The notes: generated from the letters alone by a model not told the origin. Positions 12,138 through 49,487 are shown, numbered from the stretch's first letter. The stretch: DNA of 64,000 nt from a virus (IMGVR_UViG_3300029288_005873:32001-96000); one strand, 5' to 3'. Numbers and translations are program-made.

Positions 12138-12208
12138 TCCGCCGAACAGGAGTTGCGCCTGTGTTTTTCGCTCATCGGGCAAAAGTTCTTCTGTTGAACT
12201 ATCGGCGG
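12138..12208 (-). tRNA. tRNA-Ile(GAU), atypical (C33; T-loop CGCAACT)
   Basis: Acceptor CCGCCGA/TCGGCGG; anticodon loop CCGATGA. Confidence 0.65.
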
Positions 12209-15178: not shown

Positions 15179-16125
15179 TTCTTTCCCCCATGCTTAAAAG
15201 GGCGCTTTTCATTCTTCTTCATCTTGTCGGCAATTTCCGCCTCGATATCAATTCCTAGCGAAGCAGACAGATTCAGGAGCCGAATAACAGTGTCAGCAAT
15301 CTCGACACGGAATTTGGGATAATGCTCCATTCGCACTACATCATAATTTAATGGATGTTGTTCTGATGTAACTATACGTTTGCGCACATTCTCTAGGCGC
15401 TGGCGTTCAGCATCACCGAGTTCTCGGTACTCCTCCATTGCCTCGGCAAGTTCTGTAACAACTAACATTAACTTCTCTGGCACATTCCACCAATTGGTCT
15501 CCCAACCTTTAGATTCGCTCCACTCGGCAATCCTATTTGCCAGATAGTTTAGGGAACCTCCACAGCAATCCCATCTATTGTCGAGCTCCTTCTTATCTTG
15601 GTCCGATAATTCATTCCATACACTATCCATTTCGTCCAAAATTGAGTCTTCTTCATGACATACTTTATCGCATTCATAAAGCTGCCACTTGTCACGCACG
15701 CGAACTAACTCCTGCTTCAAAAATATATATCTTTCAAGCGCCAGTATTGGATTTTCAACTTTATCTCGTATCCTATAGAGTACTGTGACCGCCTCATGAC
15801 AATCGCGATCTTGGTCAAAAACAGCATCTCTCATAGTTTCAAAAGCAACAACCTTGTCTAAAATATCCTCTGGAATCTGAGCTAAAACTTCGGCAATGCT
15901 AGGCTTGAATAGAGAAGGATGTCCATAATCATGATATGTCCTGATCGACCTCAGAATTACAAGATCTTCTGCTTCTCCGTCTGGTTTTGGATCCCACAAA
16001 AAAGCAATATGACGTGGATCAACGGATTTTATATAACTAAGTTTTCCACCAAAACTAAGAACAGGGCGGATCCGCAGAAGCAATTCTTGTAGTTTTTCAT
16101 CAGTGATCTTTGGGATTTCAAACAT
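15172..16125 (-). CDS. Multidomain protein with C-terminal MazG-like NTP pyrophosphatase
   Basis: EKLMLVVTELAEAMEE ... EIADTVIRLL ... KMKKNEKRP.KHG. Confidence 0.75.
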   Translation of the reverse strand: MFEIPKITDEKLQELLLRIRPVLSFGGKLSYIKSVDPRHIAFLWDPKPDGEAEDLVILRSIRTYHDYGHPSLFKPSIAEVLAQIPEDILDKVVAFETMRDAVFDQDRDCHEAVTVLYRIRDKVENPILALERYIFLKQELVRVRDKWQLYECDKVCHEEDSILDEMDSVWNELSDQDKKELDNRWDCCGGSLNYLANRIAEWSESKGWETNWWNVPEKLMLVVTELAEAMEEYRELGDAERQRLENVRKRIVTSEQHPLNYDVVRMEHYPKFRVEIADTVIRLLNLSASLGIDIEAEIADKMKKNEKRPFKHGGKNC

Positions 16126-36759: not shown

Positions 36760-37341
36760 TTAGGTTAACCTAAGAATACCAACAGGAGTTACCTGAAGGC
36801 TCTGCTTTATTCCATCCTTAAGAAATCTTTGGGCGGTTACGGCAATTTGTGCAGCTGTAAGGGCAAACATCGGAAGCTGTTCGCCGTCCTCACATGTTGC
36901 CTGTCCTTCTTTGCCCTCATCATCGAGAACAAAATATTCGTCCCAAACAACCCGACCAAATATTCCATCAGCAGATAGAGCTCCATGGAGGCATGGAATC
37001 TTGTGCTTCCGCACATAGTCTTGTATTGTCCTTCGAGCTTTTGCGTTATCTGTACAGTCTAGGACAAGTGCGGCACCGCCTAGGATGGCATCGGCGTTGT
37101 CTTCTGTAAGTCTATACGGAGTAGCATCAACCTTAGTCCCGAAAAGACCATTTAGAGCTTGCTGAATTGCCTTAGCCTTGTTTTGGCGCAAACCCATTTT
37201 GCTGTGGAATTGCGACTGGACGTTTTTAGTTTCAATATAATCATGGTCAACCACACGCGTAGAGTTTTTCCAGTTGCGCGCCAAAAGCGCCACATGTGAA
37301 CCGAGGGCGCCAACGCCAACAATAACTACCTTGCCTTCCAT
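36760..37341 (-). CDS. ThiF/E1-like adenylyltransferase
   Basis: GVGALG, DHD.IE..N..Q, K, DCTDN..AR; candidate catalytic Cys150 (ATCEDG). Confidence 0.9.
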   Translation of the reverse strand: MEGKVVIVGVGALGSHVALLARNWKNSTRVVDHDYIETKNVQSQFHSKMGLRQNKAKAIQQALNGLFGTKVDATPYRLTEDNADAILGGAALVLDCTDNAKARRTIQDYVRKHKIPCLHGALSADGIFGRVVWDEYFVLDDEGKEGQATCEDGEQLPMFALTAAQIAVTAQRFLKDGIKQSLQVTPVGILRLT

Positions 37342-37350
37342 GATTATTTA

Positions 37351-37617
37351 TTACTTTCTGCCAAAAGGCGTCTTTGGTCGCAGCATAATTCGTCCAGGAA
37401 GCTCAGCTGTTGCCGCGAACCTATCAACTACGAAGTCAGTGAAATCCACATTTTCATTAGCTGGAATTCCAGCCACATAGCCTGTGCGTACGGCCTCGAT
37501 TGCCATCTGCTTGATTACTTCGTCGGACGAATCATACGACACTGGGTCGTTTAGGTCCCCGTTATACCCACCAAATGTAATGTTCAGTCTAGCCATTCTA
37601 GCATTGATCTCTTCCAT
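37351..37617 (-). CDS. Ubiquitin-like (beta-grasp) protein, C-terminus KTPFG-RK
   Basis: 88 aa, beta-beta-alpha-beta-beta pattern, Gly near the C-terminus, lies between JAB and E1 genes. Confidence 0.7.
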   Translation of the reverse strand: MEEINARMARLNITFGGYNGDLNDPVSYDSSDEVIKQMAIEAVRTGYVAGIPANENVDFTDFVVDRFAATAELPGRIMLRPKTPFGRK

Positions 37618-37618
37618 G

Positions 37619-37993
37619 TTATTCCTCCTTTTGCGACAGCCTACGCAGATCGTGGATGTCGTCCGATTTTAAGAACGGTATTCTCCGGTAATCATGTTTT
37701 CCTGGACCGCTCCAAATAAATGTTGCCACTTCACTCATAGTCACAATAGGCCACACAAGCCTTCGTCCAAGTGCGGCTTCGCACGCCGCAAACGTCGTAA
37801 TATCAGTCCCAGATGGGCTTGCGGATCCATTCCAAGGATGCGTATGAGCAACTCCACCCAATCGTTCGCGATTTTCCCACAGGATATCCCACAGATTTCT
37901 AGAATCTGGTATCCAGCCTCCAGATCGACCTGGGGGGAGGTGCCAATGTATGACATTTCCATCCAAATCAAAAACTAAAGCTGTCTCAATCAT
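37619..37993 (-). CDS. JAB/MPN+ metallopeptidase
   Basis: N-terminal Glu (MIETAL) and HTHP......SGTD JAMM motif. Confidence 0.88.
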   Translation of the reverse strand: MIETALVFDLDGNVIHWHLPPGRSGGWIPDSRNLWDILWENRERLGGVAHTHPWNGSASPSGTDITTFAACEAALGRRLVWPIVTMSEVATFIWSGPGKHDYRRIPFLKSDDIHDLRRLSQKEE

Positions 37994-37994
37994 A

Positions 37995-38969
37995 TTAATC
38001 ATCCCAATCGTCATCGTCACGATCGCCATCTGCATGTCTGTAGACTACCAATTTACCTGTATTCATGGCCTCTCCCACAACAGCGGGAAGGCTTTCTAGC
38101 GTGAATCGTGCATCGCCTTTTACACCAGTGTGGTGATCGGTTAAACATATTCCTGAGTCGATTACACGTAATGTATCTTTGTCTACCACGCATTCAAGAC
38201 GACGGTTTCGGAATCTATACTGTACGACCATTTCCTTCTTATTACGCGATGGTCTAGCATCAAGTAGTTCGGCACCGCTTAGCCTTAGGGCAGCTTTTGC
38301 TGCCGCACCAAAATCCCTTTGTGCCAATGCGCGCCGTCCGGCTCCAGTTCCAGCATCTTTTAACGCTTGTCTGAACCGTTCTGCCTCAGCCCGTTTTTTC
38401 TCTTCTTCGAGTCTAATGCGTTCCATCTCTCGTTCGCGTTCCTCAGCAAGAATCCTCTGACGCGACACCCAACGAAAAGCTAAATCCAGAGCTGGGGTAA
38501 CTCCAATTACGTGGTCGACAGATCCTCTGCGATCCTGGTAAGCCATCTGTACAGCTGCCTCAGGACCTTGTGGAAACTCCTGCCTTACATATACCAGTCC
38601 TCCGCGTGTATTGGCGGCGACAGCTCTAGCAAATCTGTCAAGACCTGGCTCGACAACGAACACTGGAATGGTCTGGTCAACTAGTTTTTCTGGATCGGGA
38701 TCAATCCTTACATCATCAGGAATTAGCCTATCACCAACAACATATCCCTTGATAAGTTTATGACCATTCTCAAAATCTGGATTTGGATCAGCAGGACCCT
38801 CTAACTCTGCTTTACGACCTCCAGAGATTTTGAAAATGTACCATCCATGTTCATTGGGCAACTTTCCTTCAATCGTTAAAGTGCGCTCCCTATCATGAAT
38901 TTGTCTACCTCCGGTCCATGGAAGTGTTCTTTTGTCGCCTTCTAATGCCAATAAATCCTGCCAACCCAT
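37995..38969 (-). CDS. Multidomain protein with coiled coil and C-terminal divergent E2/UBC-like domain
   Basis: VIDSGICL (Cys275) followed by FTLESLPAVV resembles the UBC G.ICL...TL.S.L motif; gene context. Confidence 0.55.
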   Translation of the reverse strand: MGWQDLLALEGDKRTLPWTGGRQIHDRERTLTIEGKLPNEHGWYIFKISGGRKAELEGPADPNPDFENGHKLIKGYVVGDRLIPDDVRIDPDPEKLVDQTIPVFVVEPGLDRFARAVAANTRGGLVYVRQEFPQGPEAAVQMAYQDRRGSVDHVIGVTPALDLAFRWVSRQRILAEEREREMERIRLEEEKKRAEAERFRQALKDAGTGAGRRALAQRDFGAAAKAALRLSGAELLDARPSRNKKEMVVQYRFRNRRLECVVDKDTLRVIDSGICLTDHHTGVKGDARFTLESLPAVVGEAMNTGKLVVYRHADGDRDDDDWDD

Positions 38970-39278: not shown

Positions 39279-39345
39279 GAGTGCGACTCCGAATCGAACG
39301 AAGATAGTGGGTTCCCCCACTGTTTTGCCATTAAACTATCGCACA
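39279..39345 (-). ncRNA. Anticodon-less tRNA mimic (GGAA tetraloop)
   Basis: GTGCGA/TCGCAC acceptor, canonical D arm, AGTGGG-GGAA-CCCACT, CTTCG-TTCGATT-CGGAG. Confidence 0.75.
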
Positions 39346-39680: not shown

Positions 39681-39939
39681 CGCCGCATCCCTTTCTCTTC
39701 TGTTTCTTACAAGCATTAATGAAGGCTGCCCTACCCTCGCCCATTGTATTTAGTAGGGCAGCCATTTTACCACCCCGCTTTACTGCTTCCTCCTTTGTTA
39801 TTTCCTTAATGTTGTTTCCTTTACACCAAGGACATACATCGACCCTGCTTGGATGTGTCCAATGAAGTTTTAGACAATCCTCACATAGGTATGGAGTTGT
39901 ACAAGGTTTATATCCCTCATCTCCCGTGCTCATGCCCAC
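39673..39939 (-). CDS. Small Zn-ribbon hypothetical protein
   Basis: CEDC...CPWC; overlaps the stop of the vWA gene. Confidence 0.5.
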   Translation of the reverse strand: MGMSTGDEGYKPCTTPYLCEDCLKLHWTHPSRVDVCPWCKGNNIKEITKEEAVKRGGKMAALLNTMGEGRAAFINACKKQKRKGCGDV

Positions 39940-41807
39940 ACCGGCTTCTTCAGCAGATCAGTCTTGAGAACCTCCTCAACCAGGGTAACCTTTGTAGCCT
40001 TACGTACTTGAGCCACAATTGGCGTTGTAGCAATCAGATTACGAATCACACGAGTTACAGCATATGGGTCGGCAAAAATGCCTTCCTCAATCGCAAAACA
40101 GGGGATTCCAAGTCTTACTGCGGCATCCCTAACAATCGAGCCACTGCCATACTGCCCGCTTACAACCCTCAGAAGACCGAAAGCCACTGGGTTAATTCCC
40201 GATTCCTGGACAGCCACCAGTAACTGAGCTAATCCAGTATCGAGCTCATCGCCCACAAACAACATAATAGCATCCTCACCATCCTTCGGTCTACGATGAG
40301 CAAGAGCGCGAACACCTTGCGCATAACTTGTTCCACCACCAGCAAAATGTCCCCTAAAAGCCGCCTCAATACCCTTGGCAGATGGATGTTTGATCTGTAC
40401 CTCACCACCCATCGTATTGAAGACGCTAACATGTAGCCTTTCAAGTGGAAATCCAACAAGGAGCTTGGACAAGTACATCTTCGCCTGTTCTATCGCACCC
40501 TGCATAGATCCGGACTTATCCACAATGGCATAAATCCTCAGGTCCTTGGTCACCTCTTCCATAGCTTTCTTGGTAGCTGTGTCGGCAGCATCCTGTAGAG
40601 CTTCCCTTGTCTCCTGAGACTTAACGCGTCGCGCAACATTCGCGGCACGCTGATTCTCAGCAGTCTCAGTTGCCCTCTTCCAGCGGTCGGATACATCCTT
40701 CACCTTAAGAAGCCCAAGCTCTTCTAAAGTTGGTGTAAGGATAATCATATCCGTATTGGAAACGGACCCCGCTTCAATAGCTGCTGCCATAACAGCTCTG
40801 GTAAGACCTACTTCGGACGGAAGCAAACCAACAATACGCTTATAGTTTGGCTTTGTCTCCACAATGCGTTCACAGATTTGCCTTTCGGTCAGACCCTTCC
40901 AACTTTCCGCTTTCTTGACCTCAGCGCCGATGGCAATCTCCCTCCGACCATCTTCGGCCTGCTTCTGCTTCCAGCGCAGGATTTCGAAGAACTTCGGCGA
41001 AGAAGGCTTGTATCCCACCCTTCGAGCAAGCTCCATTACGGATGTACGAAAACCTGCCTTGACAAGACCCTCAAGCATCTTAGGGTTGTCTTCACGATAA
41101 CGCAGATACTTCTCAACTACTTTGGTATACCTACCCTTAGCTGGAGTGCGGGCTGATTTGCCAAAACCAAGTTCGCGATTAATCGCAGCCACGCCTGGAA
41201 GAGCAAGGATATCGCCAATCCTAAGAAGCAACTTCGGATCAATGTCATCCTTGGCTCGAATGAGACACATGGCCTCACCGACGTCCCTGTAGTCCTCATC
41301 ATGGAAAAGGACCTTGCCATCTTCCATAATAGGTTCTCCGCATCTGCCCTGAACAAGCATGAAAGCCGCAAGCACAACCTTCATATCGCGATGTTCCTTA
41401 GAAAATGCCCAGGATGCCCACCTTGCGGCAAACTCATTATCCAGTTTATAAACATCAGCAACCTGCCTGTACATCCAAGTCGCAACCTCCGGAAAAAGAC
41501 CAGGCTTTCTGTACTCAGCAACCTGCCTAGCGCCATCCATAATAGCATTGCCGTTTAGGATGCCAAGGCGAATCCTTCTTTGCTTGTTGCCGACCTTCTC
41601 AAGCCTGTAAACGACCTTCTGACCGCCTTCCTCCTTCCAAGTTACGGGTTCCCAACGCACGCCGGTCTTGGCGTTCCTGTCCACAAATAGAGCACCTGGT
41701 CTACCATGATATAGATGATCAAGATAACCTGTAAGAGTCTGAATAATTTTTTCAGCTGGACCGAGAGCTTCAATACGTTGCCTATCTGCTTGCTGATTAA
41801 CTACCAT
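39930..41807 (-). CDS. vWA-domain protein with helical N-terminal region, divergent Ro60/TROVE-like
   Basis: MIDAS DKSGS, GGT, VGDE; DNEFAARWASWA, VMELARRVGYKP and ALQDAA..A resemble TROVE segments. Confidence 0.65.
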   Translation of the reverse strand: MVVNQQADRQRIEALGPAEKIIQTLTGYLDHLYHGRPGALFVDRNAKTGVRWEPVTWKEEGGQKVVYRLEKVGNKQRRIRLGILNGNAIMDGARQVAEYRKPGLFPEVATWMYRQVADVYKLDNEFAARWASWAFSKEHRDMKVVLAAFMLVQGRCGEPIMEDGKVLFHDEDYRDVGEAMCLIRAKDDIDPKLLLRIGDILALPGVAAINRELGFGKSARTPAKGRYTKVVEKYLRYREDNPKMLEGLVKAGFRTSVMELARRVGYKPSSPKFFEILRWKQKQAEDGRREIAIGAEVKKAESWKGLTERQICERIVETKPNYKRIVGLLPSEVGLTRAVMAAAIEAGSVSNTDMIILTPTLEELGLLKVKDVSDRWKRATETAENQRAANVARRVKSQETREALQDAADTATKKAMEEVTKDLRIYAIVDKSGSMQGAIEQAKMYLSKLLVGFPLERLHVSVFNTMGGEVQIKHPSAKGIEAAFRGHFAGGGTSYAQGVRALAHRRPKDGEDAIMLFVGDELDTGLAQLLVAVQESGINPVAFGLLRVVSGQYGSGSIVRDAAVRLGIPCFAIEEGIFADPYAVTRVIRNLIATTPIVAQVRKATKVTLVEEVLKTDLLKKPVWA

Positions 41808-42519: not shown

Positions 42520-42672
42520 CGCCCCAGGAAGGACTCGAACCTTCAATTGCGTGTGAGCTTGTACCGGATGGCTCCTAAATCGTAGAACTCCTTAGGAGCC
42601 GAGAAGAGAAGCTAATTGCTTTTGTATCGCAGCTCCAAATGCTGTTGCCTTTTCCAATTTGGCTACTGACCC
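42520..42672 (-). ncRNA. Expanded tRNA-like RNA, copy A
   Basis: D arm, loop ATTTGGA, ~80-nt insert, GAAGG-TTCGAGT-CCTTC T arm. Confidence 0.75.
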
Positions 42673-42682
42673 GAACTGATAA

Positions 42683-42710
42683 AACATATCCTCCTGAAGA
42701 AAATTGTCAA
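42683..42710 (-). promoter_or_regulatory. Sigma70-like promoter for RNA A
   Basis: TTGACA-N16-TATGTT about 10 nt upstream of the RNA. Confidence 0.5.
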
Positions 42711-43777
42711 GCCTCATTTTCGGGAAACAGTCCAAGCTTCACGTTCTGGAGGTTTTTCTGCTTAGCGTCGATCTCACGCTCCAATTTCCCTAAATTTCTT
42801 CAACTTCATTACTTAGCCTCACGAAGTTTATTTCCATGGTTTCCTTGTAGTTCATATCCGATTTCTTTTGCAGCAAATCGCAACGGATCCCAATGGTGAT
42901 GATTGTCACAATTGTCCCAAAGCGCTTGTATTCTTGCTGCTATAACTTCATTTGGCTCATCTATAAGTTCTACCGTAATGCGATATTTTCGCACTTCAAC
43001 TATGCCATTAAAACATGATGGGCAATCCTGTTTCATGTTTTTAATGGCATACTGATGAGGCTCAGAAAAAGTTTCCATTACAATAGGTTCAAAACGGATT
43101 GCTTTTCTCTTATCTTTACGCATCATATTTCCCTTACTGGTGAAGAAGACTAAGTGCTTGTTTTCGCTCAAGATTAAGAATTTGCCCTCCTTCAAAAAGG
43201 AGTATCCAACGAACTTTTCCCTTGTCCGAAAAACCAATCAAATCAGTACCGCACGCTACCTTCCAAAACCTCTCTCCAATATTCCGTCGTACTATTTTTC
43301 CTATTCCAGGAGTTATACCAATCCAATCTTTTCGACAATGGATTCCTTCACGCTTTGCAATGCGTACTTCCCAAGATTCCAACTTCATATTGTCCTCATA
43401 TCCTAAAAACTAGATTATATCTTGCCAGACTTTATTTGTTTTGATCTCTCCATGGCCATATTGAATATATCAGTTCTATCATCATCTGACAAATTACGTA
43501 GAATCTCGAACACACTATTATCAATGCCATCAAATGTTGGATCAAGTTCCAAATTTGTCCCCTTTAGCCCACTGGAGCGCACAACAATAACATCTCCATC
43601 ATATATATTACAGGCACATAGGTTCATCCACCTAACCATTGGTCCACCATGTGCGTCTTTTTCCTCAAATACGACGCCCATAGTTCCGGGGATAACATCA
43701 GCAGCATATAATCTCTTGGCTGCCACGACAACATCTCCTCTCCTAAGTTTGCTTATATCCATTATTTTCCTTTCTTG

Positions 43778-43852
43778 TCGGGATAGCAAGATTTGAACTT
43801 GCGACCTCTCGGGCCCAGGCCGAGCGCTCTAACCAGGCTGAGCTACATCCCG
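43778..43852 (-). tRNA. tRNA-Pro(UGG), C33
   Basis: CGGGATG/TATCCCG; CTCGG-CCTGGGC-CCGAG. Confidence 0.9.
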
Positions 43853-44832
43853 CCCTTACAAAACTGACTATTCCAATGGACAACCTTCTTCAGCTAGTTG
43901 CCTATCACATTCGTATGAACAACACCACTCTCCATCATAGCATGCAGAACCAACAATACATCCCTTCGCAAATTTTGCCTCAATACCGCAGTTTGCGCAT
44001 CGACCCCCTGGGTCGTCTGTCGGCCATGACGAGCGCTGCATCCATCTCCAGAATGAACGCATCTCGTCCTCCATAACCTCCGCATAACATTCTGCCTCAA
44101 AAGCTTTCTGTTCCTCTGTATATTCATGTTCAAACTGAATGCTGGTATCGGAGATTTCCCTACACATGTTGCCCCCTTTCCGCGAAAACGTCCGCGGATT
44201 TTTTTCGCTGCATCAACGCGCGATCCTTGTGACTGGGCTAGTTATGCTAGCTTTTATGTATGTTTCTCGGAACTGCGATGACGCAGCCCTGCTAACCAGG
44301 CCTTCCACATAAGTTCTATTGTTCTGTCATCCAGTGCGCAAAATGGCACTCCTGTTTGCGCATATAACCAACCGTCCATCCATGCTATAAAATCGCTGTC
44401 GTTTTTCCAATCATCCGTCATTTTTTATCCCAATACGATGCCAGCCACCACTTGGGCTCGCCGCAAAGATTTACACCATGATCTTCACAGATTTTCCTTA
44501 TTTTTAGTATAACTTTATAATCAATTTCCATATCATCAATTTCAACTACACCTTTTCTACCAGTTAATAATACCTTTGCCGCTAAGGCGTATATTGGACG
44601 ACCCATAGAATAATAATTTCCTACCACAAATGGAATTGGATTCCCACTTCTCCATTTCATCCTATAATGATACTGTGTATCTTCATCAATATTATCAGGT
44701 AATTTGTACCCATTAATTTTCATCCACCACTTATCAACATCCTCTCCCCAAGGGAGATTATAACCTTCCTCAAATAACCAACCATAAAACAAAACACCAT
44801 CAGCGGATATTCCCATTACTTTTTCTCCTTTG

Positions 44833-44904
44833 TGGAGCCGTCCCGAGGTGCGCGGGAACTCTAAATTCTTCAGATTTATGTGCTACTGATTACACCACGG
44901 CTCC
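44833..44904 (-). tRNA. tRNA-Phe(GAA), atypical T-loop CGCACCT
   Basis: GGAGCCG/CGGCTCC; TAAAT-CTGAAGA-ATTTA. Confidence 0.7.
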
Positions 44905-44992
44905 TTATTGGTACTATAATTTTACACTATAGTACCACAGATAATAATCTGTAACAATTGCAACTATTCTATTGTCAACGAACATACTACAT

Positions 44993-45063
44993 TGACCCTA
45001 AGGGGAATTGAACCCCTGTTTCATGACTGAGAATCACGCGGCCTACCATTAGCCGATAGGGTC
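44993..45063 (-). tRNA. tRNA-Glu(CUC)
   Basis: GACCCTA/TAGGGTC; anticodon loop TTCTCAG. Confidence 0.9.
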
Positions 45064-45655
45064 TTTTGTTTCGTTTGGACTACTTTTCCAATCTGGCATT
45101 CTAGCTATAGCCGAATCTCTTGTAGGACGAAATGCCCATATCCAACTAGCTGGCCATTCTTCGTCCTCACAAATTATTGGCTTCTCCGAAAAAGCTGTAA
45201 TTACCACAAAAGCTTCTTTTGTGTCCACTAATGCAAAGAACACTTTGTTGATCGCAAGATCAACTATTACAATATTAGCGCGCTTTCCAATACTATGACG
45301 TGGATCGTTTTTATACCACATTTTATTTACCATGCTTTTCTTTGTCACATTCTTGTTCCGCTGCTGCGTGACAAATTGGACACCAGCCGCGAAAACATTT
45401 CACGGCATTCGAGGTGTATGGCCAACCGATACGACTAGCATCTCTCATAAGCTCCTCGCAAAGGTCTATCCTACCTTGCCAATAATCTGCCGATCTACCA
45501 ACTCGCTCACGATTGCGCTTCAAATTTTTGGCTTCCCAAAGCAAATACGCAAAGTGCTTAGTAAGACCTTTTGTATATGGATGGTTAAGCCAATCCACCG
45601 TTTGTTGCTTGTCTCCAAAAAATCTTGCGAAAATGCCCATCCTTTTTCTCCTTTA

Positions 45656-45728
45656 TTCCGGAGCTAGGATTCGAACCTAGATCAGCAACATCCAAGGTGT
45701 TGTGCCCTTGCCATTGGACCACTCCGGA
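45656..45728 (-). tRNA. tRNA-Gln(UUG), C33
   Basis: TCCGGAG/CTCCGGA; CAACA-CCTTGGA-TGTTG. Confidence 0.88.
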
Positions 45729-45730
45729 GT

Positions 45731-45870
45731 GGTGCTGTCTCTCCAGCTGTCACGCCTCATACGTTGAGTTGCGCCTCCCATCAGTGTTCTCCAACACGTG
45801 AGATAACAGATTGCTGGCGTTCACAACCGAATGACCGCCCCAATTTGTTGGGCGTGTACATTTCACTACA
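45731..45870 (-). ncRNA. Candidate structured ncRNA abutting tRNA-Gln
   Basis: Intergenic, several hairpins including two with purine-rich GGAGA loops. Confidence 0.45.
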
Positions 45871-45969
45871 AAAAAGATTATCTACAACAGGTTTAACTAG
45901 TCTAGATATATGTCATTAAAATAATCAACCAAATGTAATAATTTTAACAATCATGTTATCAAAATTCTA

Positions 45970-46347
45970 TTATGTTACCTCGTATTTGGATCCAACACAT
46001 ACTGTCACTGATCGATTTGGGCATTCATGCGAAGGAATAAGGAATTTCCTACCATCGTCGGTGACTATAAATACCAGATCCACTTTTGTCGAATCAAAAA
46101 ATTTAACCGTATTTCCTGTTTTGTTTCCGCCCTTTGTACGCATTTCGACTTGATAACTACTGCCGCTCCTCTTGTATCGAGATGTACGAACTTGTACTTT
46201 CTTGAGAGTGCCGTCGTCTATTACTAAGTCATACTCTTGACTATCAGTAAGTGGTACGCATACAGTACAACCTTGTACAGAAAACCATCCGATAGCAATC
46301 CCGAGACCAACATCTCCCTGCTTTTTGCTATTTCTTTGTTTTAGCAT
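45970..46347 (-). mobile_element. PD-(D/E)XK homing endonuclease
   Basis: QGDVG, P..D..YDLVID, KVQVRT. Confidence 0.8.
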
Positions 46348-46537
46348 AACGTTATTAAATCGCAGCCTGTGCCCACAGATACACCATCAGTGCCGTAAAA
46401 GCAACAATCGCCAAAATACCAATACCGATACGCACATATGTGTACACTGGAGCCCTTAGCTGTGGAACTTCACAACATTCTTGTTCATTCTTCTTCTCAG
46501 CACATTTGCCAGAACATTCACACATTATCGCCACCTT

Positions 46538-47356
46538 TCAGATGTCAAGCCCAATATCATCGGGGGTTTTGATTCCGACAACTTTCTTTATACTCTCCTT
46601 CCACTTAACTTTTGGTGCTAGAACGGGATCTGACATAACTCTATCATAAAGTCTAATAATTGCTGCGTCGCTTTGAGATTCTTCCAAAGCAAGAATCATA
46701 TCACTCGTATGCTGATCCATATAACCACCGGCATTTATTAAACAGCGCTGACTTAGCTTATTAGCCTTCCCAATCCAAATTGCGTCAGTTACATATGGCA
46801 CTACAGTCTTAACTAGCCTAATAACATTATCGTGATTGGTATCCAGCATTGGCTCCATTGATACGCTGGTCTGCCAGCCGTTATCATGCGCCCACATGAG
46901 AGAATATAGTCTTTCAGCAAATGTGGGAGCCTTTGGCTCCCAAAAACGCAACGTACTAGGATCCATTGATCCAATTGTGAAACGAAATAAGATATTTCCC
47001 TTTACCCAAGGCATATCTCCACACAATTGTTTAATAATATACGGACTCGGCTTAGATACTACAAGAACTTTATTTCCAGCCTCCAAGAGCTTCCATAACA
47101 TCTCACGACAGTACTTAAAATTACTGGTCGTAATATCGTGAGATGTTGGAAACATTACTGTTCCTTGTCTCTTTCCAAACCTTTTTGCTATCTCCCTTGG
47201 TCGTTCTATTTCCCAACTCTTTGCTGTTTCCTTGCCAAACCTAATAGCTTGTGCCTTTGCATAACAATAAAGACAACCGTTGGTACAACCATCCATACAA
47301 TTTGCAGAACTAGCAGCCCATTCTCTTGTACCAGTTGGAGTTTTCTTACTACTCAT
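46538..47356 (-). CDS. Radical SAM protein
   Basis: GCTNGCLYCYA; SVSMEP. Confidence 0.85.
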   Translation of the reverse strand: MSSKKTPTGTREWAASSANCMDGCTNGCLYCYAKAQAIRFGKETAKSWEIERPREIAKRFGKRQGTVMFPTSHDITTSNFKYCREMLWKLLEAGNKVLVVSKPSPYIIKQLCGDMPWVKGNILFRFTIGSMDPSTLRFWEPKAPTFAERLYSLMWAHDNGWQTSVSMEPMLDTNHDNVIRLVKTVVPYVTDAIWIGKANKLSQRCLINAGGYMDQHTSDMILALEESQSDAAIIRLYDRVMSDPVLAPKVKWKESIKKVVGIKTPDDIGLDI

Positions 47357-47862
47357 CTATTTATCTTCTCTCAGTGAATTAGCTAAATTAGTCGCATATG
47401 TAAACAGTGGACCTTTACAAATTTGACGAGGATAAGGATACGTATTAATATTGCCAATTAGGTTTTCGATAACTCCAATTGGCAAATGATTTTGTATAAG
47501 ATCATATAGAAACAAAACCAACGCATCGTTACACCAAGATGTGTTTTCTTTGCACGACTTCTCTAACTCCCCAATTTTCTTCTTTTTTGCCATATTAGTC
47601 TCTTTTTCTCAACCGTTCTGCCAGGTCTTTGGCATAGTTGGCTAGCCAGCCTTTTTGTGAAACGGCTTGGCTGCTTTTCAACTTCGCCCATCATATCCTC
47701 AACCATGCCTATGGTCATATGGTCGCGCATAAGCTGATATAGGAAAGACACAAGCGGATCATCGGACCCAACATTACCACTTCGCTCACGCAACGCATCC
47801 ATACGATATGCTGTCTCCGTCAAAGAAACATGGCATTCCCTAAGCTCGTTATCTTGCGCCAT
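47357..47862 (-). CDS. Two paralogous small proteins; the upstream one is frameshifted in an A-run near 47652-47656
   Basis: Shared D.LV.FLY.L...H..IG motif; removing one A restores FTKGWLANYAKDLAERL, matching KGPLFTYATNLANSL. Confidence 0.6.
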
Positions 47863-47874
47863 TCTATTCCCCTT

Positions 47875-47908
47875 AAAAACAAAAACGCCCAAGCTTTTAA
47901 CTTGGGCG
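47875..47908 (-). terminator. Intrinsic terminator of an attenuator
   Basis: CGCCCAAG-TTAAAAG-CTTGGGCG followed by TTTTTGTTTTT. Confidence 0.8.
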
Positions 47909-47938
47909 CCGGTTTTGCTGTTTATTTTCCGCTTTGGT

Positions 47939-48103
47939 TTATGCGCCCAAGTCTCCTATTAAGTTACTACCAAAGCGGACGTTTCCATTAAAAGAATAAG
48001 AACGCTCGGGCAGAATACTGGATGGCTGATTCCACACACACGTATCCAGTAGCCCATTTTGGGCTTTCTGGAAAGCTACTTTGTGTGTTAATGAACGCAT
48101 CAT
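47939..48103 (-). CDS. 54-aa putative leader peptide
   Basis: GGAG RBS; MMRSLTHKVAFQKAQ...GSNLIGDLGA*; last codons form the antiterminator strand. Confidence 0.55.
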   Translation of the reverse strand: MMRSLTHKVAFQKAQNGLLDTCVWNQPSSILPERSYSFNGNVRFGSNLIGDLGA

Positions 48104-48175
48104 TTTTTATATCTCCAAAAACAGCACCAGAGGGTTTAGTTGCTTTAATGGCATACTAGACCTAGTCTGGCGCGG

Positions 48176-48299
48176 CGGGGAGTTTCCGATTCGAACGGAA
48201 AGCTTGTGGGCTTCACAGGAGTTGGTCGTTTACGACCGAGAAATGAAGCAGGTTATTCTGGTTTGGCTCCAGTTGGCACCCCAGGTGCCAAAACTCCCC
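48176..48299 (-). ncRNA. Expanded tRNA-like RNA, copy D
   Basis: GGGGAGT/ACTCCCC acceptor, TTCCG-TTCGAAT-CGGAA T arm, GCTTCA...CTCGGTCG-TAAA-CGACC...TGAAGC insert. Confidence 0.75.
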
Positions 48300-48336
48300 A
48301 AAATTAGGAATGCGCGAGCGAGGAAGTCTTTTGTGT

Positions 48337-48408
48337 TAGCGGATGAGGGGATTGAACCCTCAACCTTCTGATTATAGGTCAGACGCTCTACCATTGAGCT
48401 GATTCGCT
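48337..48408 (-). tRNA. tRNA-Ile(UAU), C33
   Basis: TCTGA-CCTATAA-TCAGA; A73. Confidence 0.85.
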
Positions 48409-48437
48409 TGTGGACTTCTTTCCTTTGCGCATACCCG

Positions 48438-48574
48438 TCTGCCCGCTGGGATTCGAACCCAGATGATTTTCGCGTGTAGGTTCAGTATATTAGCTCCAAA
48501 GGAGCCGAGTAAAGGAACTAGATGCTTTTTGAAAGCTCCAAATGCTTTTGCCGCTCCAATTCGGCCACGGGCAG
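48438..48574 (-). ncRNA. Expanded tRNA-like RNA, copy B
   Basis: CTGCCCG/CGGGCAG acceptor, AAAGC-ATTTGGA-GCTTT, insert, CTGGG-TTCGAAT-CCCAG. Confidence 0.8.
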
Positions 48575-48645
48575 ATAAAAAACAAACTAGCCTAATCTAT
48601 CAATTTTACAGCATAATAATTAAACTAGTTAAGGAGGAACTTAGT

Positions 48646-49161
48646 ATGCTAATTTGTCGTAACTGTAACCAACCTTTTCCCTACAGCATTATCGTAAATG
48701 GGAAAGTGCGAAACCTACAACACAGAAAATTCTGTCTCAAATGCTCTACTTTCGGGAAGCATAATACCTGCGCAGATATAAAACAAAAACTCTCTGATCA
48801 GAAAATTTGCGCTAAGTATCACAATCTTTTTAGCAAAGACGATTTCTACAAACGGGCAAACGGTAGTCCTATTTCATATTGTAGAGAATGCGCCCGAAAA
48901 TGGTTCCTTGATTGGCAACATTCCATCAAAAAACAGTGCGTTGATTACAAAGGAGGCTGCTGTATCTTATGTGGATACAACAAATACTTCGGCTCGCTGG
49001 AATTTCACCACTTGGATAGGAGTCAAAAAGATTTCACCATATCAAGTCACAGAAGTCTTTCTTTCGACCAACTCAAAGAAGAACTAGATAAATGTATCCT
49101 TCTTTGTGCCAACTGTCATCGTGAGGTACATGGTGGAATTACTGAATTCCCAGCTGATTAG
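48646..49161 (+). mobile_element. HNH homing endonuclease (opposite strand)
   Basis: AAGGAGG RBS; YKGG.C..CGY...LEFHH.D..K...ELDKC.LLCANCHRE.H. Confidence 0.9.
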
Positions 49162-49263
49162 TATTCCGTTTATGCTTACAAATTTCTACAGAACCAAACT
49201 ACTATTTTCACAAAACTACAGACTTTACATATTACAATTCGGCTACAATTTAATCTTCTTCCG

Positions 49264-49400
49264 TGCTCCCGGATGGACTCGAACCATCATTTGCTTGTTC
49301 GCTTGTTCCGGGTGACTCCTAAAAGTCGAGAGGTCAAGCTGGGTTGCTTTTTGTGATCAGATTTAATGTCTGTTGGCTTTTCCAGTTTGCCCACGGGAGC
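49264..49400 (-). ncRNA. Expanded tRNA-like RNA, copy C
   Basis: GCTCCCG/CGGGAGC acceptor, CAGA-CATTAAA-TCTG, insert, GATGG-TTCGAGT-CCATC. Confidence 0.8.
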
Positions 49401-49420: not shown

Positions 49421-49487
49421 ACAATATTATCCAAAATCCAACATGTCGACTTTTTATGTCATTATCTAGACAACATGTTGGATTTTG
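49421..49487 (-). promoter_or_regulatory. Promoter overlapped by a 15-bp inverted repeat
   Basis: TCGACA-N17-TATTGT; CAAAATCCAACATGT (49432-49446) and ACATGTTGGATTTTG (49473-49487). Confidence 0.5.

Follow-up and report, generated by a model that had tools for sequence, protein, structure and literature searches.

The 64,000-nt window analysed here (IMGVR_UViG_3300029288_005873:32001-96000) is part of a 441,904-bp phage genome. It encodes five RNAs which carry a conserved structural module on a tRNA-like frame. Four of these (copies A to D) are closed, tRNA-shaped molecules; the fifth is an open form which clasps a complete cloverleaf (Table 1). The RNAs belong to a widespread family, without an entry in Rfam, that is found in giant phages and in bacteria. 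They are probably Y-RNA-like partners of a cryptic Ro60-like protein of 625 aa encoded in the same window, to which they would bind. The conservation of Ro60-Y RNA particles extends from bacteria to humans; their roles in bacteria and viruses are poorly understood.

The RNA family and its conserved module

The closed copies share a common body, in which U8 and a D arm containing GG are followed by an anticodon-like arm (stem of 4-5 bp, loop of 7 nt) and a T arm with TTCGA. Acceptor stems are perfect 7-bp helices in B, C and D. The stem of A contains two mismatches; its orthologue in the closest relative of the phage, L006, has a perfect acceptor (GGGTCAG/CTGGCCC). Between the anticodon-like arm and the T arm, at the position of the variable arm, there are 55-85 nt. 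All four copies are read from the minus strand, which also holds all 15 tRNAs called by ARAGORN in the window. Positions and arms agree with a first-pass annotation of the DNA, which had placed four tRNA-scaffolded elements at these locations and described the imperfect acceptor of A, the intact acceptors of the others, and D, anticodon-like and T arms in each copy (confirmed by hand parse). The parts of the insert are also as claimed: a first helix, an internal loop ending in CTC, a covarying distal helix, and ACA(C/A)GC. Two of the structural points needed amendment. The annotation counted a family of four; the four stand, but the open-form member was overlooked. It also named flanking motifs on both sides of the insert. 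The motif after the module is conserved throughout the family as YACA(A/C)GC, whereas the AAAAGC before it is not.

Homologous units were collected near the genes for homologues of the 625-aa protein encoded next to the RNAs, and they define the module consensus. The 5' part is a helix of 4-9 bp (helix 1) followed by a loop strand ending in NCUC. Of 87 units, 75 have G as the first base of the distal helix, whose cap is often GNRA or UUCG. The 3' part consists of a second loop strand (A-rich, usually with A first), the return strand of helix 1 and YACA(A/C)GC, with the T arm 0-11 nt further on.

A covariance model, R1, was built from a MAFFT alignment of 35 modules from other phages; sequences of the window were excluded. 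Pairing cells make up 84.8% in this alignment and 57.6% in shuffles, a percentage which is partly built in, because the seed scanner accepted only helices of 4 bp or more. For covariation the score is 0.77 versus 0.23 in shuffles, and none of 500 shuffles reached it. When pairing partners were slid by 1-3 columns as a control, the score was 0.25 or lower. Both sides change in 19 of the 20 pairs, and the covariation result was repeated on 143 distinct sequences. Whole-unit MAFFT alignments had the distal helix out of register; pair counts were therefore taken from the geometry-matched seed. The covariation of the apical stem, noted at first among the four copies, is thus strong in an alignment that does not contain them.

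Applied to the window, R1 recovers exactly copies A to D. The next match in the window scores 17 bits, versus 40.9-52.6 bits for the copies, and on the whole 442-kb genome the four are the sole matches. This recovery is not affected by the helix requirement of the seed scanner, and nor is the strand asymmetry described below. The resemblance among the copies is far beyond chance. The minimum free energy (MFE) fold of Copy D is the proposed structure, and 0 of 200 shuffles are equally stable. The module is formed in the MFE fold of Copy C; the overall fold of Copy A is weak. An Infernal search of Rfam assigns A to D to no family at gathering or E-value thresholds. The YrlA model (RF02553, gathering threshold 69 bits) has no match in the window at E values up to 10, and the transfer-messenger RNA (tmRNA) and ribozyme models do not match the four copies. 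BLAST against GenBank phages returned matches only to ordinary tRNA-Pro and to an HNH gene.

There are three layouts of the module. In layout i, represented by A to D, the module has a closing loop and occupies the variable-arm position. In layout ii it is open; the distal helix is formed from the 5' and 3' ends of the RNA, around a permuted domain with the order T arm, loop-capped acceptor, D arm and anticodon arm. In layout iii the open module clasps a complete cloverleaf. The module is independent of the tRNA frame, because it is found in all three. A layout ii example from phage contig L001 (15552-15698) folds exactly as the permuted form (z -5.2). Layout ii units also give partial matches to the YrlA model (28.1 and 22.8 bits), which cover model positions 29-81 only.

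The fifth member of the window has layout iii. The strands of its distal helix (AUGCGC/GCGCAU) and of its other helix (GAAGUC/GACUUC) flank the whole of a cloverleaf at 48337-48408, which is called as tRNA-Ile(UAU) and has C33. CACA-AGC overlaps the 5' end of the cloverleaf, and CUC stands ahead of the distal helix's 3' strand. The orthologue in L006 (79% identity) carries a compensatory change from U-A to C-G in the distal helix. A closed unit followed immediately by a type iii unit, as seen here for B and the fifth member, recurs in more than 20 loci.

Two other small RNAs were seen near members of the family. Directly after the Y-like RNA array of L001, a 497-kb phage contig, there is a bacterial-type small signal recognition particle RNA (15907-15999, plus strand; Rfam 57.7 bits). 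In the window, an anticodon-less tRNA-like RNA (39279-39345, minus strand) was considered as a family member and ruled out, as it has no flanking module. In its anticodon arm, GGAA closes a stem of 6 bp; the acceptor, D and T arms are normal.

Table 1. Features of the window. Acceptor strands and anticodon-like loops are from hand parses.
Feature	Position	Strand	Description	Acceptor strands	Anticodon-like loop	R1 score (bits)	Fold z
Copy C	49264..49400	-	closed-form tRNA-shaped RNA, 137 nt; module and T arm 49272-49343	GCTCCCG/CGGGAGC	CATTAAA (A33)	52.6 (E 2e-13)	-2.5
Copy B	48438..48574	-	closed-form RNA, 137 nt; module and T arm 48446-48522	CTGCCCG/CGGGCAG	ATTTGGA	40.9	-2.7
Fifth member	48306..48436	-	open form (type iii); descriptor scan; MFE fold gives both clasping helices
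Copy D	48176..48299	-	closed-form RNA, 124 nt; module and T arm 48184-48253	GGGGAGT/ACTCCCC	AGCCAAA (G33)	47.9	-4.7
Copy A	42520..42672	-	closed-form RNA, 153 nt; 10-bp distal helix; module and T arm 42528-42614	GGGTCAG/CTGGGGC	ATTTGGA	41.5	-0.8
625-aa Ro60-like protein	39930..41807	-	beta domain at the N terminus, then a helical TROVE-like ring region, vWA domain at the C terminus; proposed partner
Promoter-like site TTGACA-16-TATGTT	42683..42710	-	directly upstream of Copy A; consensus scan 10/12; pattern match only
Promoter-like site	48603..48632	-	upstream of the run B, open unit, D; consensus scan 9/12; pattern match only
Promoter-like site	49421..49449	-	upstream of Copy C; consensus scan 9/12; pattern match only
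Intrinsic-terminator-like hairpin	47884..47910	-	12 bp and T run; downstream of D

A Ro60-like protein and its linkage to the RNAs

Copy A sits 713 nt upstream of the gene for the 625-aa protein, on the same strand. Pfam gives weak vWA matches only for this protein. Its AlphaFold model has a predicted local distance difference test score (pLDDT) of 79.7. In a Foldseek search with the full model, the top 10 matches are all Ro60/TROVE chains, with 526-572 aligned columns and E values from 4e-7 to 3.5e-5. The vWA domain reaches Z 15.6, and full-length structural comparison with VIA-align gave vWA domains only; the helical part was therefore compared separately. Folded alone and compared with 48,161 representative chains, it has the Ro60 entries 1yvp, 2nvo and 9l5y as its top three matches (Z 9.1, 9.1 and 7.8, with 238-259 residues aligned), and the next match has Z 6.1. 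Foldseek with the helical part alone found nothing at E ≤0.001; Ro60 entries were ranked 2, 3, 5 and 6. The protein is treated here as a divergent Ro60-like protein by predicted fold and not as a proven member of the TROVE family. A database search gives it at least 1,983 protein matches at E ≤1e-5. One homologue, P0009 (1043 aa), carries the intein/homing-endonuclease domains PF14528 and PF14890, which indicates an intein within the Ro60-like gene of a related phage.

Linkage in phages was assessed in 63 loci around the Ro60-like gene, which total 1.26 Mb. There are 116 closed and 99 open descriptor matches on the strand of the gene, versus 0 and 4 on the other strand. R1 has 170 matches at E ≤0.001 in these loci. 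A first version of the descriptor had no T-arm requirement and was unspecific (300 versus 140 matches on the two strands). Units lie within 10 kb on the strand of the gene in 57 of the 63 loci; in three checked loci without nearby units, the RNAs were found 12-16 kb away. The units are upstream of the gene in some phage genomes, including that of the window, and downstream in others. A pattern search which started from the RNA found 67 contigs, 34 of them already known as carriers of the gene. Ten further contigs from this search include six with the gene; the other four are fragments, 27-68% complete.

The strongest evidence is the linkage in bacteria. Homologues of the phage gene with 38-43% identity are present in Myxococcota (including Cystobacter fuscus and Myxococcus species), Verrucomicrobiota and Terriglobales. 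All 37 R1 matches in bacterial loci are on the strand of the gene, mostly within about 1 kb of it. The DNA, read by eye, contains arrays of one to six open units directly beside the gene. These units have CACUC, YACAAGC and a terminal helix followed by a U run, usually with a permuted tRNA-like domain, and they are often only 50-300 nt from the Ro60-like gene and on its strand. Within 500 nt of the gene there are 58 descriptor matches, versus about 7.5 expected; within 1.5 kb, 42 of 55 loci are positive. On GC-rich bacterial DNA the relaxed open-form scan has a high background (299 versus 174), and only the enrichment near the gene was used. YrlA RNAs were first assigned to Ro60 from the same gene-adjacent arrangement (PMC4201824).

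Two observations concern the surroundings of the Ro60-like gene. In the window it adjoins a ubiquitin-like cassette (36760-38969, minus strand) which encodes a 324-aa E2-like protein, a 138-aa JAB protein, an 88-aa ubiquitin-like protein (Ubl) and a 193-aa E1 protein. By tblastn, 54-59 of the 63 phage loci and 23-40 of 56 bacterial loci have cassette genes no more than 10 kb from the Ro60-like gene, and Prok-JAB and ThiF were confirmed by Pfam in the Verrucomicrobia locus L185 (13550-14890). The Ro60-like gene is also present on contigs L154-L177, which come from metagenome-assembled genomes binned as Myxococcota, Kofleriaceae, Polyangia and others; here it is 54-63% identical to the phage gene. 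These contigs are probably mis-binned DNA of huge phages, and the mis-binning hints at Myxococcota as hosts.

Relation to known RNAs and rival explanations

The first-pass annotation had likened the copies to a non-permuted Y RNA of the YrlA type. The Ro60-fold neighbour, the linkage of RNAs and gene, and the permuted relatives with their sub-threshold YrlA matches all favour this likeness. Like YrlA (RF02553; Chen et al. 2014, PMC4201824; Wang et al. 2018, bioRxiv 10.1101/312249), the RNAs combine an internal-loop stem with a tRNA-like domain that has T and D arms; the domain includes TTCGA T loops, an invariant G53-C61-type pair and the D-loop GG. As in YrlA, a Ro60-type gene is accompanied on its strand by one or several adjacent copies, phages included, and the type ii relatives have the YrlA order of T arm, capped acceptor and D arm. 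There are also differences. The window's RNAs do not have GNCGAAN0-1G, and all scores, including those of the permuted relatives, are below the RF02553 threshold. The Ro module of YrlA continues the anticodon stem, whereas here the module takes the place of the variable arm and the RNA keeps its anticodon-like arm. The window copies are unpermuted and have free 7-bp acceptors; type ii units are permuted, yet their module is at the variable-arm position. Finally, the partner protein proposed here is missed by the TROVE model of Pfam.

Phages with Ro60 homologues and Y-like RNAs have been described before (PMC4201824; PMC12135203; PMC7824862). Thermus phage phiLo has a Ro60-fold protein with stem-bulge-stem RNAs, Yrl1 and Yrl2, encoded beside its gene (PMC12135203), and the phiLo Ro60 structures (9KOP and 9L5Y) count among the best structural matches to the 625-aa protein. 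Unlike the RNAs of the window, the phiLo Yrl RNAs have a CGAA motif and no tRNA cloverleaf (PMC12135203), and the proteins are only about 15-16% identical to the 625-aa protein. No description of the module, the closed tRNA-shaped forms, the protein family or a Ro60-like/Ubl system was found in the literature; coverage was incomplete, and this is no proof of novelty.

As Y-RNA-like partners of the Ro60-like protein, the five RNAs would be unspliced, non-decoding tRNA mimics in which two modules are joined. One is the tRNA-like, L-shaped body, with T loop, D-loop GG and acceptor, which could engage factors that recognise tRNA. The other is the arm module (helix, internal loop, helix and YACA(A/C)GC). 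Its most likely docking site is the Ro60-like ring protein whose gene adjoins Copy A. Bacterial RNAs and some phage copies build this second module from their own two ends, the 5' and the 3', in the manner of classical Y RNAs. By analogy with Ro60-Y RNA particles, the RNA may gate the ring, or it may tether the ring to a tRNA-binding effector during infection. The analysis shows the family membership, the structure with its covariation, the three layouts, the Ro60 fold of the protein and the linkage of RNAs and gene in phages and bacteria, whereas physical binding, the identity of the effector and the biological role are inferred.

Several observations weigh against such a partnership. A regular-expression search finds the canonical Ro-binding motif, GNCGAAN0-1G, in none of the five window units, as had been claimed from the outset for the four copies. 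Pfam TROVE (PF05731) has no match in the 625-aa protein, in the phage genome or in the bacterial homologues. The protein has no sequence match to Ro60 chains in the PDB, and the Ro60 fold match is moderate (Z 9.1, template modelling score 0.3-0.5). The phages are interrelated, and co-occurrence among them, which partly reflects shared ancestry, is weak evidence alone. Phage units are also located in tRNA arrays. The complete 436-kb phage genome G005 (contig of L032) has a second cluster of seven units (97934-100445), which is 232 kb from its single Ro60-like gene. The ubiquitin-like cassette is equally linked, so the direct partner could be a cassette protein. Lastly, anticodon loops that are formally canonical, together with 7-bp acceptors, persist in A, B and many relatives, for which charging or decoding may be possible.

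The copies might be functional decoding tRNAs with an extreme variable arm of the class II kind, perhaps charged through recognition of the arm. Class II tRNAs (Leu, Ser and bacterial Tyr) and allo-tRNAs share the cloverleaf and an extra helix between the anticodon and T arms. The variable arm of class II tRNAs is roughly 10-24 nt; here it is far larger, with a conserved internal loop and flanking motif, and the anticodon-like loops are often non-canonical and unconserved. In favour of decoding are the 7-bp acceptor stems, the discriminator base, the D-loop GG and the TTCGA T loop, as well as the location in a tRNA array. The original claim that the loops are non-canonical holds for C (A33) and D (G33), which break the U33 rule, but the ATTTGGA loop found in A and B formally follows the canonical pattern (U33, UUG, G37), and about 43% of the family has U33 with a purine at 37. 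Across the family, however, U33 is found in only 44 of 84 closed units (52%), compared with 781 of 832 ordinary tRNAs in the same DNA (94%); A33 is found in 23 of the 84, the anticodon-arm parse being heuristic for these counts. Anticodons with A34, for example AUC, AAU and AAA, are present in 12 of 35 clasped tRNA-like domains. The loops also differ between close orthologues. The Ro60-like protein of L006 is 78% identical to that of the window, and the orthologous RNAs keep their stems and module while their loops change: AGCCAAA of Copy D is CCGTAAA in L006, CCUAUAA of the type iii unit is CUAUGGA, and ATTTGGA of an A/B-like unit is the 8-nt ATTTTGGA. A canonical tRNA-Gln(UUG) is already present in the window (45656-45728). 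The same module occurs in permuted RNAs with a capped acceptor and in bacterial RNAs, and these are not chargeable. All four copies are under the gathering threshold of the Rfam tRNA model (RF00005, 29 bits); A scores 24.9 bits, B, C and D are unmatched, and ARAGORN calls none of the four. Decoding is thus very unlikely, as the first reading of the DNA had suggested.

Splicing would give a different explanation for the same structures. The insert could be an intron or mobile insertion, excised by enzymes or by itself to leave normal tRNAs, with the permuted forms maturing via circles; permuted algal tRNA genes do mature through circular intermediates. Bulge-helix-bulge elements of archaea and Cyanidioschyzon are used in ways that parallel the three layouts, and one Rnl2-type RNA ligase is encoded elsewhere in the phage genome. 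Lak megaphages are reported to have 'enigmatic' tRNA introns (Devoto et al. 2019, PMC6784885), which resemble the units described here in being oversized tRNA genes of very large phage genomes. These inserts were predicted as introns with eukaryote settings of tRNAscan, and one may encode a tRNA; by description they differ from the present family in that no shared module or link to Ro60 is reported (PMC6784885). The genome of the window, as far as phage genes are concerned, encodes neither RtcB nor a tRNA splicing endonuclease (PF01974), and the controls were positive. Module flanks vary widely in length, from 2 to 21 nt on the 5' side and from 0 to 11 nt between ACA(A/C)GC and the T arm, so no fixed junction would leave a variable loop of 4-5 nt and restore a normal tRNA; this was judged from flank lengths, and no formal scan for bulge-helix-bulge motifs was made. 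Known self-cleaving ribozymes have no Rfam match in the region. The module is under strong structural selection and has stable tetraloops, and the tRNA bodies are not conserved decoders. In open forms the module makes up the RNA terminus and is not an insert, and an intron cannot account for the bacterial module, which is a terminal stem with a terminator beside the Ro60-like gene. From these sequence features, splicing of the RNAs is unlikely, and their being introns or mobile insertions as a whole is highly improbable.

The copies could also be real structured tRNA mimics whose module has another direct partner or role: a protein of the Ubl cassette, a processing or punctuation signal for RNase P or RNase Z within the tRNA operon, or decoys for anticodon nucleases of the host that act independently of the Ro60-like protein. 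The co-occurrence of E2-like, JAB, Ubl and E1 genes described above is compatible with this, as is the genome with a cluster far from its Ro60-like gene, and fast diversification of the loops is expected of decoys. However, the tightest and most consistent bacterial neighbour is the Ro60-like gene, and such adjacency is the known Ro60-Y RNA arrangement (PMC4201824). A pure processing signal needs no internal-loop sequence conserved across phyla. A different partner or role for the module is accordingly considered unlikely.

If the RNAs are Y-RNA-like partners of the Ro60-like protein, the family suggests a large hidden branch of Ro60-Y RNA systems, in which the protein escapes TROVE models and the RNAs are missed or mis-called by tRNA finders. 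Some 'tRNAs' of phage arrays, such as the tRNA-Ile at 48337-48408, are parts of these RNAs, and their annotation should be corrected. A docking module of the Ro type that joins a tRNA body at any of three positions would help to define the task of each module. Cultured myxobacteria (Cystobacter fuscus and Myxococcus species) have homologous loci, which makes the proposed binding and function accessible to bench tests.

A broader proposal, which we regard as doubtful though worth stating, is that the RNAs are one arm of an undescribed conserved system common to giant phages and to bacteria, Myxococcota and Verrucomicrobiota at least. A cryptic Ro60-like ring and several tRNA-mimic Y-like RNAs would act in it with the complete E2-like/JAB/Ubl/E1 cassette. 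Sensing of RNA or tRNA damage by a Ro60-like particle might then be coupled to tagging with a ubiquitin-like protein. The closed forms of phages, with free acceptor ends and fast-changing loops, would in that case be baits for host factors that target tRNA.

Other features of the window

Promoter-like sites precede Copy A, Copy C and the run formed by B, the open unit and D (Table 1). The hairpin downstream of D probably ends the transcript of this run. A 272-aa radical S-adenosylmethionine (SAM)-like protein is encoded within the region of tRNAs and Y-like RNAs (46538-47356, minus strand); its score of 27.8 bits is under the Pfam cut-off of 29.5.

Two tRNA matches of Rfam are not called by ARAGORN. 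A match at 12138-12208 (minus strand, 48.6 bits) adjoins tRNA-His. A tRNA-Phe(GAA)-like gene at 44833-44904 (minus strand) has the T loop CGCACCT instead of TTCGA; it scores 46 bits in E-value mode and is absent from the gathering run. Between copies C and B, on the opposite strand, there is an HNH endonuclease-like gene (48646-49161, plus strand) which has about 69% DNA identity over 200 nt to HNH genes of Klebsiella jumbo phages.

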